A stretch of DNA of 64,000 nt from Escherichia coli (GTDB taxonomy: Bacteria; Pseudomonadota; Gammaproteobacteria; Enterobacterales; Enterobacteriaceae). This document shows, piece by piece, positions 62,904 to 63,881 of this stretch (the stretch's first letter is position 1; each line of letters starts with the position of its first letter). A program made the translations under genes and the position numbers. The notes beneath the pieces were generated by a model, which saw only the letters and a list, made by a program, of their open reading frames with translations, was not told where the DNA came from and searched no databases. The DNA is taken from assembly GCF_003334255.1 (NCBI RefSeq), contig NZ_QOWU01000024.1; one strand, given 5' to 3'.

Positions 62904-63881
62904 CTACAGTAAATCTTCAGTCTCACGAATTTCCTGACTGACATCTCTGGTTCCGGATGACTGAACTTTACGATACAGGTCGAGAGCCTGTCGGAGATCG
63001 ACAGGTCTTCCTTCTCCGTAGTGATACATAATGGCCAGGTTATACCAGGCAGTGGCGTCATTGCATTCAGCGGCTTTCGTAAACCATTCAAAGGCAGCCT
63101 GATAATCTTTCTCAACGCCTTGTCCGTGTTTATACATATAACCGATGTTGACGTAAGCGCCGACGCTCCCCTGAGCGGCAGCCTTCAGATACCAGTACAT
63201 CGCTTGCTTATAGTCCTGGTCCACCCCTTCGCCAGCGTTATAATCCCATGCAATTTGAAACTGGGCGTGCCGATTACCCTGCTGTGCGCTTTTCAAATAC
63301 CAGAATGCGGCGAGTGTCTTGTTTTGAGCAACGCCTTTTCCGTCTTCATAAAGATCGGCCAGATTGTTTTGCGCGTCACTATGGCCTTGTAATGCAGCTT
63401 GTTTGTACCAGAAAAATGCCAGCGCATAGTCTTTTGCGACTCCGTTGCCATTTCTGTACATCCACCCAAGATTATTTTGCGCATAAGACATTCCGCTCTC
63501 CGCGGCTATCTGATACCAGACAACCGCTTCTTTATAATTGGGGGCTTCTCCACGATCCAGTGTCCAGCCAAGGGCGTTGGAAGCGAAAGTATGGCCTTGT
63601 AGGGCAGCTTTTTTCAGCCAGAAGATGGCTTGCTCATTATCTTTATGACGGCTTTTATCCTCGGTATACTTTTGCCCTAAGGAATACTGTGCTTCACAAT
63701 GACCTTGCTCAGCGGCCAGCTTCAGCCAGTAAAAGGCTTTTTCGTCGTCCGGAGAATCAATTGCGCTATCGCGATTATAATAAAACCCAACAATATATTG
63801 AGCCTCGCAATCGCCTTTTTCAGCACGTTCGATAATCTCATCTATTGATAAATTATCGCAGCAACTTGACGTGAAAATCAT
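62904..63881 (-). CDS. ybeQ: Sel1-repeat (TPR-like) protein
   Basis: Start trimmed to MIFTSSCCDN, 325 aa; at least seven tandem about-36-aa repeats of the form A.x.WYxKAAxQGhxxAQxxLG visible in the translation. Confidence 0.8.
   Translation of the reverse strand: MIFTSSCCDNLSIDEIIERAEKGDCEAQYIVGFYYNRDSAIDSPDDEKAFYWLKLAAEQGHCEAQYSLGQKYTEDKSRHKDNEQAIFWLKKAALQGHTFASNALGWTLDRGEAPNYKEAVVWYQIAAESGMSYAQNNLGWMYRNGNGVAKDYALAFFWYKQAALQGHSDAQNNLADLYEDGKGVAQNKTLAAFWYLKSAQQGNRHAQFQIAWDYNAGEGVDQDYKQAMYWYLKAAAQGSVGAYVNIGYMYKHGQGVEKDYQAAFEWFTKAAECNDATAWYNLAIMYHYGEGRPVDLRQALDLYRKVQSSGTRDVSQEIRETEDLL

Follow-up and report, generated by a model that had tools for sequence, protein, structure and literature searches.

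Which partner does the Sel1-repeat protein YbeQ of E. coli serve, and in which compartment does it act? The gene lies near the end of the window, the stretch of 64,000 nucleotides analysed here, for which a first-pass annotation had pointed to a repeat scaffold at the envelope or in host interaction. Our results are consistent with a repeat scaffold as well, but they suggest a cytoplasmic location and, tentatively, a connection with the Hsp70 genes of the same locus.

The ybeQ gene and its locus

The gene at 62904-63881 is the already annotated ybeQ of E. coli. Its minus-strand ORF starts with an ATG at 63881 and ends with the stop codon at 62906-62904, encodes 325 amino acids and is 100% identical to K-12 MG1655 ybeQ (b0644) in DNA and protein. 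RefSeq already labels it 'Sel1 repeat-containing protein YbeQ', and ybeQ with its Sel1 composition is already known from every E. coli annotation. Over 50 kb, 10 substitutions separate the window from MG1655. The following features were assigned:

62904..63881, minus strand: ybeQ coding sequence, 325 codons plus stop (ORF list, b0644 identity, eight Pfam Sel1 matches, AF2 model, dN/dS)
62949..63809, minus strand: coding region of the eight Sel1 repeats, residues 25-311 (Pfam coordinates, lag-36 periodicity with z = 15.2, repeat alignment)
62868..62891, minus strand: terminator-like G+C-rich hairpin with T-rich tail just past the ybeQ stop, in the spacer common with convergent ybeL (consensus scan, pattern match only)
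63889..63893, minus strand: Shine-Dalgarno AAGGA, 7 nt upstream of ATG 63881 (sequence reading)
63882..63923, minus strand: remaining native ybeQ leader of 42 bp with a TATAAT hexamer and the Shine-Dalgarno sequence (K-12 identity to 63923, divergence from 63924)
63924..64000, minus strand: IS1 end with the right inverted repeat, cut by the window edge (divergence point from K-12; genome-wide matches of the final 77 bases to IS1 family elements)

The AAGGA motif is spaced 7 nt from ATG 63881 and just 1 nt from an alternative ATG at 63887, and the start at 63881 is therefore favoured. The hairpin downstream has an identical site in K-12, and no RNA families were found in the ybeQ region. IS1 lies 42 bp upstream of the ybeQ start codon in place of the K-12 ybeQ/ybeR spacer, and its transposase frame is directed towards ybeQ, as judged by reading the IS1 end sequence. 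The spacer contains an H-NS site and an RpoD promoter (PMC3946193). The insertion displaces the native, H-NS-bound promoter region of ybeQ, which is relevant to this strain only. A sigma-70 promoter scan of the IS1/ybeQ junction gave no match on the ybeQ strand, and the same junction was absent from all complete E. coli genomes searched.

A homologue search with YbeQ was useless for orthology, as it returned 2,251 matches at E ≤ 1e-20, of which the best 120 were generic and mostly longer multi-repeat Sel1 proteins, E. coli fragments aside. Orthologues were identified via the neighbour YbeR instead. Full-length collinear orthologues share 82% identity in E. whittamii, 59% in Citrobacter enshiensis and 50% in Salmonella. 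They have 325-331 amino acids and the same eight repeats across genera while synonymous divergence is saturated, and dN/dS against E. whittamii is 0.11. ybeQ is thus a real, constrained gene.

Among 5,426 complete genomes, ybeQ was present in 3,853, ybeR-djlB in 3,713 and ybeU-djlC-hscC in 4,369, these counts being marginal and not joint totals. About 29% of complete E. coli genomes lack ybeQ or have a truncated copy. In a common deletion, ybeR and djlB are lost along with the 5' two-thirds of ybeQ, and ybeT-ybeU-djlC-hscC is spared; this co-deletion may be one inherited event. IS1 insertions and deletions are recurrent at the locus, this window included. All 17 full-length rows shown, taken from positions spread along the ranking, carry ybeQ as an ordinary gene without qualification.

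Repeats, fold and cellular location

The Pfam-A search found Sel1 (PF08238) eight times in YbeQ, seven times with E ≤ 1e-3. The units cover residues 26-61, 63-97, 100-130 (weak, E = 0.027), 132-167, 168-203, 205-239, 242-275 and 280-305. BLOSUM62 self-similarity peaked at lags of 36, 72 and 108 residues with z = 15.2, 10.6 and 9.2 against 500 shuffles. When aligned, the eight units fit the textbook consensus ..AQ..LG..Y..G.GV...DY..A..WY.KAA.QG. and share a pairwise mean identity of 34%. The protein consists of a flexible N-terminal tail (residues 1-12, with the conserved Cys8-Asp9), a half-repeat cap helix (13-21), the eight repeats (25-311, about 88% of the protein) and an acidic C-terminal helix (315-324). 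No tandem repeats were found at the DNA level in the region, which argues for an old protein repeat and against a recent duplication or an assembly artefact. The first-pass description of a protein made almost entirely of tandem Sel1 repeats is hence confirmed, all four peptides quoted in it are present in the translation, and the periodicity is recovered by alignment. Its count of at least seven was right about the repeats being real; the number itself is eight, plus the cap helix. None of the named Sel1 equivalogs in NCBIfam reached its cut-off with YbeQ, namely, MerG (100 of 350 bits), MotX (69 of 330), ExoR (58 of 450) and AlgK (40 of 700), and the likeness to them is generic repeat similarity only.

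The AF2 model of YbeQ was obtained with a pLDDT of 96.1 and a pTM of 0.88. It has 18 helices arranged as the N-terminal cap helix, eight antiparallel pairs of helix A and helix B and the C-terminal helix, while residues 1-12 form a flexible coil. YbeQ is accordingly predicted to be a soluble all-alpha solenoid with Sel1 helix-turn-helix repeats stacked into a right-handed superhelix. The tandem units of ~36 residues and, in the model, the stacked A/B helix pairs (TM 0.8-0.88 against solved structures) place it among the Sel1-like repeat (SLR) proteins of PF08238 and clan TPR. Foldseek matched the model, which is superposable on LceB and EsiB, to these two proteins as well as to Oxalobacter Sel1 proteins, LpnE and HcpC, and a PDB sequence search returned the same proteins. 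Invariant positions among the orthologues amount to 39% in helix A and 50% in helix B; they mostly reflect structural consensus, and a binding groove was not located by this comparison.

The best structural matches were Legionella pneumophila LceB (8sxq, TM 0.83-0.88) and LpnE (6deh, TM 0.74). Both are all-Sel1 solenoids of about 325-350 residues like YbeQ, but they are associated with the virulence of an intracellular pathogen, have no common gene context with YbeQ, and their identity of 31-33% represents the generic repeat consensus only. EsiB of uropathogenic E. coli CFT073 (c5321, PDB 4bwr) forms a similar Sel1-like superhelix, with a sequence match of E = 3e-68 and a Foldseek TM of 0.86 (rmsd 2.5 Å, 35% identity over 310 columns). 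EsiB contains a larger number of repeats, uses a signal peptide for its secretion and has secretory IgA as its ligand. With 325 residues compared to 467 in the EsiB chain, YbeQ differs in its eight repeats, its missing export signal and its genomic context. The Helicobacter cysteine-rich proteins HcpB and HcpC (1ouv) have the same repeat type (TM 0.68 and 0.82). In Hcp proteins, each repeat has two cysteines that form a disulfide, and a signal peptide is present. In the AF2 model and the repeat alignment, C25 and C62 of YbeQ open helix A of repeats 1 and 2, a place that we take to be equivalent to that of one Hcp repeat cysteine; still, YbeQ has only five cysteines in total (7, 8, 25, 62 and 273), which do not provide a pair for each repeat, and it lacks a signal peptide. 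SEL1L/Hrd3 (8kes, 9og0, 5b26), the founding Sel1 family, matched residues 118-310 in sequence (E about 1e-41), but superposed poorly (TM about 0.4), and unlike YbeQ these proteins are eukaryotic, ER-lumenal and membrane-anchored. As an ERAD adaptor within a protein-quality-control machine, SEL1L/Hrd3 has the kind of role proposed below for YbeQ, by analogy only.

The N-terminal cysteine cluster MIFTSSCCDN had been suggested as a lipidation or acylation site, and this suggestion did not hold. Export signals were assessed with rules for charge and hydropathy and a lipobox regex. The lipobox [LVI][ASTVI][GAS]C had no match in the first 40 residues, and the cysteines at 7-8 are preceded by T-S-S. 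The first 25 residues are acidic with one K/R and six D/E, and hydropathy is at most 0.47 for 19 residues in the whole protein and 0.88 for 12 residues at the N-terminus, so that neither a signal peptide nor a transmembrane segment was recognised by these rules. Upstream, the ORF can be extended by two codons at most. C7 is confined to Escherichia in the orthologue alignment, while C8-D9 is kept in Citrobacter and Salmonella, and all orthologues have the same short polar N-terminus without export signal. About half of the generic Sel1 homologues, by comparison, have a hydrophobic N-terminus. From its sequence, YbeQ is predicted to be cytoplasmic and not a lipoprotein, and the envelope or host-interaction location fits the secreted relatives EsiB, Hcp and LpnE rather than YbeQ and its orthologues.

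It is thus scarcely credible that lipidation or acylation of these cysteines anchors YbeQ in the envelope. The cysteines are adjacent, and many Sel1 proteins are secreted or lipoproteins, among the relatives here the structural neighbours EsiB and HcpC and the sub-threshold match AlgK. However, a signal peptide does not fit in front of a cysteine at position 7, upstream extension of the ORF is not possible, the h-region is lacking in a net acidic N-terminus and C7 is unconserved outside Escherichia; the neighbouring Sel1 protein YbeT shows with 2.92 what an export signal scores over 12 N-terminal residues. It is also very improbable that YbeQ is exported non-classically and acts on host proteins, with Cys8 being acylated in the host cell like in some injected effectors. 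LpnE, LceB and EsiB are host-directed, Cys8-Asp9 is conserved, and computational host-pathogen papers pair YbeQ with human ERAD proteins via SEL1L similarity (PMC5395655). That pairing is based on domain homology only, YbeQ has neither a secretion signal nor an adjacent secretion system, the gene is present in commensal K-12, and the chaperones encoded around it are cytoplasmic or located at the inner membrane.

The hscC islet

ybeQ is divergent from ybeR, encoding a DUF1266 protein, and djlB, encoding a J protein. Together with ybeU-djlC and hscC, these genes form an Hsp70 islet that is lower in G+C and silenced by H-NS. For hscC mutants, a UV phenotype has been reported. The HscC ATPase is stimulated by DjlC, which has been shown to insert into the plasma membrane; DjlB is grouped with DjlC as a tail-anchored protein, and mutation of hscC, or of djlB and djlC together, makes cells sensitive to Cd2+ (PMC8215388). 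Escherichia, Salmonella and Citrobacter all have ybeQ in this divergent position beside ybeR-djlB; conserved gene order in three related genera of enterobacteria argues only weakly for a functional link. With a dN of 0.29-0.40, ybeQ is near ybeR and djlB (0.21-0.48) and not near leuS and ybeL, the core genes on the flanks (0.02-0.06). Among 39 long members of the DUF1266 family, 6 are fused to TPR-type solenoid repeats at E ≤ 1e-3, a number that rises to as many as 9 at E ≤ 0.1, and one member of the family is fused to a DnaJ domain.

The triad of DUF1266 protein, J protein and HscC also occurs without any Sel1 gene, namely, in Klebsiella spallanzanii (ybeL-ybeR-djlB-hscC), four Pseudomonas loci and three metagenomic loci. 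In general, this machine can therefore do without YbeQ, which is not encoded wherever the module occurs, as a core component would be, and is probably a lineage-specific accessory at most. The second Sel1 protein of the islet, YbeT, shows 30-39% local identity to YbeQ, and its gene is likewise divergent from a DUF1266-J pair (ybeU-djlC). Unlike YbeQ, it has 184 amino acids, about 3-4 repeats and a strongly hydrophobic N-terminus, which marks it as exported or membrane-anchored. ybeT is missing from the Salmonella and Citrobacter islets that keep ybeQ.

YbeQ and YbeR were joined by a (G4S)6 linker and modelled with AF2 as a single chain, using a paired-orthologue alignment of six rows only; both halves were well folded, but the pTM was 0.56, so that no confident complex was predicted. 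TPR co-chaperones that clamp the EEVD tail of Hsp70 (Hop, CHIP, Tom70/71) likewise combine an alpha-solenoid with an Hsp70 and might serve as a model for a contact between YbeQ and HscC; the structure 3lca of this group was found at rank 50 among the Foldseek matches. Unlike the partners of these co-chaperones, HscC does not carry an EEVD-type tail in the C-termini examined (...DYLAIEIP, ...EYLGIEEPKAP and ...ALDELRY), which rules out such a tail as docking motif. YbeQ is also not the split-off counterpart of the extra ~400 residues in long J proteins (850-950 amino acids) from Pseudomonas and metagenomes, given an hhalign probability of 0.1%; Pfam detected no Sel1 or TPR domain in these residues. 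An anti-phage defence role of the islet was not supported by PADLOC-DB 2.0, in which YbeQ had only a spurious 19-bit match to PtuA and YbeL, YbeR, DjlB, YbeT, YbeU, DjlC and HscC had none.

A proposed role and its alternatives

Sel1 and TPR solenoids have no catalytic site and bind protein or peptide on their repeat surface. The first-pass view of Sel1-repeat proteins as protein-interaction scaffolds is upheld as a generic role, and its statement that the function in E. coli is not established agrees with the literature searched, in which ybeQ is mentioned but no dedicated functional study of it was found. By family, YbeQ would bind another protein or peptide via its repeats without catalysis, and the adjacent gene set would be its most likely partner system. 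We propose, with a probability of roughly 0.45, that YbeQ is a cytoplasmic Sel1 scaffold serving the YbeR-DjlB-HscC Hsp70 machine as an accessory, the chaperone link being suggested by gene context. It would be a lineage-specific component at the inner face of the membrane and might act there as a client-selecting adaptor or regulator.

The same fold and location would equally suit a cytoplasmic scaffold whose partner is unrelated to the Hsp70 genes and which merely shares with them an H-NS-silenced, horizontally acquired islet, possibly for protection against oxidative stress. We regard this as a serious possibility, if a somewhat doubtful one. It agrees with the triads lacking a Sel1 gene and with the YbeQ-YbeR complex that was not confidently predicted, whereas the kept position beside ybeR-djlB in three genera and the joint loss of these genes in E. 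coli speak for a connection. Krisko et al. (2014) reported a survival of 0.80% at 2.5 mM H2O2 for a ybeQ deletion compared to 13.8% for the wild type, and a plasmid copy rescued it (PMC4054840). However, the strain is given as JW0610, an identifier that is assigned to citC elsewhere (PMC6199490), and due to this conflict the phenotype possibly belongs to another gene or reflects a table error; it is weak evidence. That ybeQ is decaying and effectively silent, with no function today in most strains, is improbable. H-NS silencing, the absent or truncated copies and the repeated IS1 insertions and deletions would fit decay, as would HscC, DjlB and DjlC being below the proteomic detection limit (PMC8215388). 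Against it stand the dN/dS of 0.11, the orthologues with similar length and the same repeat number and the unqualified gene in all full-length rows shown.

Concerning the chaperone accessory, a more specific version can be formulated. YbeQ might be a cytosolic adaptor in Escherichia, Salmonella and Citrobacter that docks on membrane-tethered YbeR-DjlB-HscC and chooses its clients, and Cys8 might give a thiol-stress response together with C109 of DUF1266, an invariant cysteine within the CCGEGG stretch of the YbeR-type partner. This version is speculative, and we consider it unlikely in its entirety. If true, a thiol-responsive module would join the Cd2+ sensitivity of hscC and djlB djlC mutants with the questionable H2O2 sensitivity of ybeQ, and YbeQ would be the first TPR-like co-chaperone of a specialised Hsp70 in bacteria.

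For YbeQ itself, the analysis removes the lipoprotein and envelope lead. The protein would then be a cytoplasmic, lineage-specific addition to the poorly understood HscC/DjlB/DjlC system, the third Hsp70 system of E. coli, and if the chaperone link is true, YbeQ would be a handle for finding the clients of HscC.

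The ybeQ gene and its Sel1 solenoid

In the six-frame ORF list, ybeQ lies within a minus-strand ORF of 327 codons at 62904–63887. The features of the gene and its surroundings are:

63881, minus strand: ATG of ybeQ in its annotated form (325 aa), two codons inside this ORF
7 nt 5' of ATG 63881 and just 1 nt 5' of ATG 63887, minus strand: Shine-Dalgarno sequence AAGGA
3' of the ybeQ stop codon, in the spacer common to the convergent ybeL: G+C-rich hairpin with a T-rich tail (pattern match only)
63924–64000: end of an IS1, running off the window end and starting 42 bp upstream of the ybeQ ATG

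The spacing of AAGGA makes 63881, the start chosen in the first-pass annotation, better than 63887. Both the 978-base gene and its 325-aa product match ybeQ (b0644) of E. coli K-12 MG1655 exactly, and zero differences to MG1655 were found in 58334–63923. Over the 49,933 bases of 1–49933, there were 10 substitutions and no indels; judged by its sequence, the source strain is a very near relative of K-12 and not MG1655 itself. The designation of ybeQ as a Sel1-repeat gene is correct, yet already known (RefSeq product names ‘Sel1 repeat-containing protein YbeQ’ and ‘Sel1 family TPR-like repeat protein YbeQ’).

At least seven repeats had been noticed in the translation. Pfam-A gives eight consecutive Sel1 repeats (PF08238), seven of them with E-values of 9e-11 to 4e-4 and one weak match with 0.027; the repeats occupy residues 25–311, ~88% of the protein. 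Self-comparison peaked at shifts of 36, 72 and 108 residues (z = 15.2, 10.6 and 9.2, respectively, against 500 shuffles). The eight aligned units have a mean identity of 34% and the classical Sel1 consensus ..AQ..LG..Y..G.GV...DY..A..WY.KAA.QG. as their own. No tandem repeat was detectable in the DNA of the ybeQ region, which argues for old and diverged repeats and against a recent duplication or an artefact. An AlphaFold2 model, built from a 24-row alignment, reached a mean pLDDT of 96.1 and a pTM of 0.88. It consists of:

Residues 1–12: coil, with pLDDT <50 at 1–4
Residues 13–21: cap helix, its sequence resembling the second half of a repeat
Residues 25 to 309: eight helix-A/helix-B pairs
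Residues 315–324: final helix

The closest PDB structure found by Foldseek was Legionella LceB (8sxq, TM 0.83–0.88), followed by EsiB/c5321 (4bwr, TM 0.86) and further by Oxalobacter Sel1 proteins, LpnE and HcpC. A PDB search with the sequence returned the same proteins as well as SEL1L; two computational papers have paired YbeQ with human ERAD proteins purely via SEL1L similarity. Matches to MerG, MotX, ExoR and AlgK in NCBIfam were all sub-threshold, which places YbeQ outside these functional families.

The N-terminus and the location of YbeQ

A bacterial lipoprotein requires a signal peptide with a lipobox at its end. YbeQ has neither a signal peptide nor a match to the lipobox [LVI][ASTVI][GAS]C, and its ORF cannot be extended upstream to accommodate a hidden signal peptide. 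The first 20–25 residues contain six acidic residues versus one basic, and the top 19-residue hydropathy window anywhere in the protein is 0.47. The N-terminal 12-residue maximum is 0.88 for YbeQ, 0.39–0.53 for its orthologues and 2.92 for YbeT; a hydrophobic start is present in about half of the generic Sel1 homologues. C7 of the N-terminal ‘cysteine cluster’ occurs in Escherichia only, and C8-D9 is kept in Citrobacter and Salmonella, with Cys8 in the flexible tail. A lipidation or acylation of these cysteines, as suggested in the first-pass annotation, thus finds no support. The accompanying proposal of a scaffold at the envelope or in host interaction holds as a reasonable idea for the scaffold, but the envelope part is not supported, given the missing signal peptide and the polar, acidic N-terminus. 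From these sequence properties, we conclude that YbeQ is probably cytoplasmic, and it is best read as a cytoplasmic eight-repeat Sel1 solenoid. The islet encodes a second Sel1 protein, YbeT (retrieved locus L001:7853–8407, outside the window), whose N-terminus is strongly hydrophobic (MNKKLMYIFAIFIVAAITC...), which points to export or membrane anchoring in contrast to YbeQ.

The islet and its variation

The G+C content is 43–50% in the H-NS-silenced islet (ybeQ, the divergent ybeR-djlB, ybeT, ybeU-djlC and hscC), 51–53% in its flanks and 29% in the ybeQ/ybeR spacer. The DUF1266 proteins YbeR and YbeU are 59% identical and the J-domain proteins DjlB and DjlC 50%; YbeQ and YbeT are alike at the repeat level only. 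DjlC stimulates the ATPase of the Hsp70 HscC, and its insertion into the plasma membrane was demonstrated; both it and DjlB are classed as tail-anchored. Loss of hscC or of djlB djlC makes cells sensitive to Cd2+, an hscC-dependent UV resistance is mentioned, and HscC, DjlB and DjlC stay below the proteomic detection limit (PMC8215388). An H-NS site and an RpoD promoter (CTGACG-17-AATAAG) were published for the ybeQ/ybeR spacer (PMC3946193), and a predicted RpoE promoter is cited for ybeQ (PMC7430671). In an hns mutant of EAEC strain 042, one DUF1266 gene, homologous to ybeR or ybeU, was ~300-fold up (PMC7582179), and ybeT and ybeU-djlC are SlyA-responsive (PMC5797941).

As homologue searches with YbeQ were swamped by generic Sel1 proteins, orthologues were located via the neighbour YbeR and by reading the contigs. 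The collinear orthologues all share the eight repeats as well as position and orientation, with identities of 82–95% in E. whittamii and other Escherichia species, 59% in Citrobacter enshiensis and 50% in Salmonella enterica. A dN/dS of 0.11 (against E. whittamii) indicates purifying selection on the protein. Still, ybeQ evolves fast, with dN of 0.29–0.40 to Citrobacter and Salmonella, similar to ybeR (0.21–0.27) and djlB (0.35–0.48) and unlike the flanking core genes leuS (0.02) and ybeL (0.05–0.06). The islets of Salmonella and Citrobacter lack YbeT. In Salmonella, a further gene of 412 aa without a Pfam match lies between hscC and rihA (L003:16082–17320), and the leuS/ybeL interval contains a dehydratase/KdgT/sigma-54 activator insert; E. 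coli has neither.

Among 5,426 complete E. coli genomes, ybeQ was held (≥80%) by 3,853, ybeR-djlB by 3,713 and ybeU-djlC-hscC by 4,369. In a common variant, one deletion starts inside ybeQ and stops at the end of djlB, so that the final third of ybeQ adjoins the djlB end, as in strain OV24 (L017:9001–9466) and ~600 other genomes; ybeR and djlB are gone and ybeT-ybeU-djlC-hscC retained. E. coli B-DolR has a ybeR/djlC hybrid arrangement instead, and in one strain the whole stretch from ybeQ to hscC is gone beside an IS1.

In the window, IS1 replaces the K-12 ybeQ/ybeR spacer and displaces the native promoter region, so that the published RpoD promoter and H-NS site lie beyond the insertion point. 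Since the transposase frame is directed at ybeQ, as read from the IS1 end, read-through could now drive the gene. This exact junction was found in none of the 5,426 genomes. In 21 of them, however spaced, an IS1 lies close to the start of ybeQ (e.g. L002:6123–7062), the distance taking several values. One strain has been hit twice, in the spacer and within ybeR. The spacer appears to be a hot spot for IS1.

YbeQ and the DUF1266-J protein-HscC triad

The triad was surveyed with a DjlB/DjlC profile scan of one genome per species; ORFs of the retrieved loci were searched with K-12 proteins, and three remote DUF1266 representatives were also looked up. The core order is DUF1266, J protein and a convergent HscC-type Hsp70. 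It occurs in Klebsiella spallanzanii (ybeL-ybeR-djlB-hscC, with only 194 bp in the place of ybeQ), in Pseudomonas mosselii, P. entomophila, P. palmensis and one further Pseudomonas genome bin (MAG), and on three metagenomic contigs. No Sel1 gene was found near the core at any of these loci. Together with the E. coli counts and deletions, this argues that YbeQ is not core to the Hsp70 machine: it is an accessory travelling with the ybeR-djlB half of the enterobacterial islet.

The Pseudomonas and metagenomic triads (L010, L013–L016, L020–L022) contain a long J protein of 850–950 aa, of which the enterobacterial DjlB and DjlC are half-length versions. The extra ~400 residues gave only a weak Pfam match, to DUF805, at the membrane end, and YbeQ is not homologous to them. 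C109 and the adjoining G110, part of a CCGEGG stretch, are invariant in the chaperone-linked DUF1266 subfamily, as is a W-D-x-x-R motif.

The only experimental ybeQ phenotype found in the literature is the complementable H2O2 sensitivity of a deletion strain (Krisko et al. 2014), with 0.80% survival at 2.5 mM compared to 13.8% for the wild type (PMC4054840). The supplementary strain table of that study lists the ybeQ strain as JW0610, which is citC in PMC6199490. Due to this conflict, the phenotype is treated as unconfirmed; either the table has a misprint or a different gene is responsible for the phenotype.

DUF1266 comprises ~1,560 representative clusters at E≤1e-3, and many members are domains of longer proteins with TPR repeats, a copper amine oxidase N-terminal domain or LRR_5. 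TPR repeats occur in six of 39 long DUF1266 proteins (E≤1e-3; up to nine at E≤0.1) and a DnaJ domain in one. These fusions may give an independent hint of a partnership between solenoids and DUF1266. A single-chain AlphaFold2 model of YbeQ-(G4S)6-YbeR folded both halves with a pTM of 0.56, the value to be expected of two domains that are independent. An EEVD-like tail is absent from HscC, and PADLOC defence models gave no match to the islet genes. The main rival, that YbeQ scaffolds a partner unrelated to the Hsp70 module, is a serious but less probable candidate, at about one chance in three. Tentatively preferred, with a probability of roughly 0.45, is that YbeQ would be an adaptor or regulator, specific to its lineage, that serves the YbeR-DjlB-HscC chaperone module.
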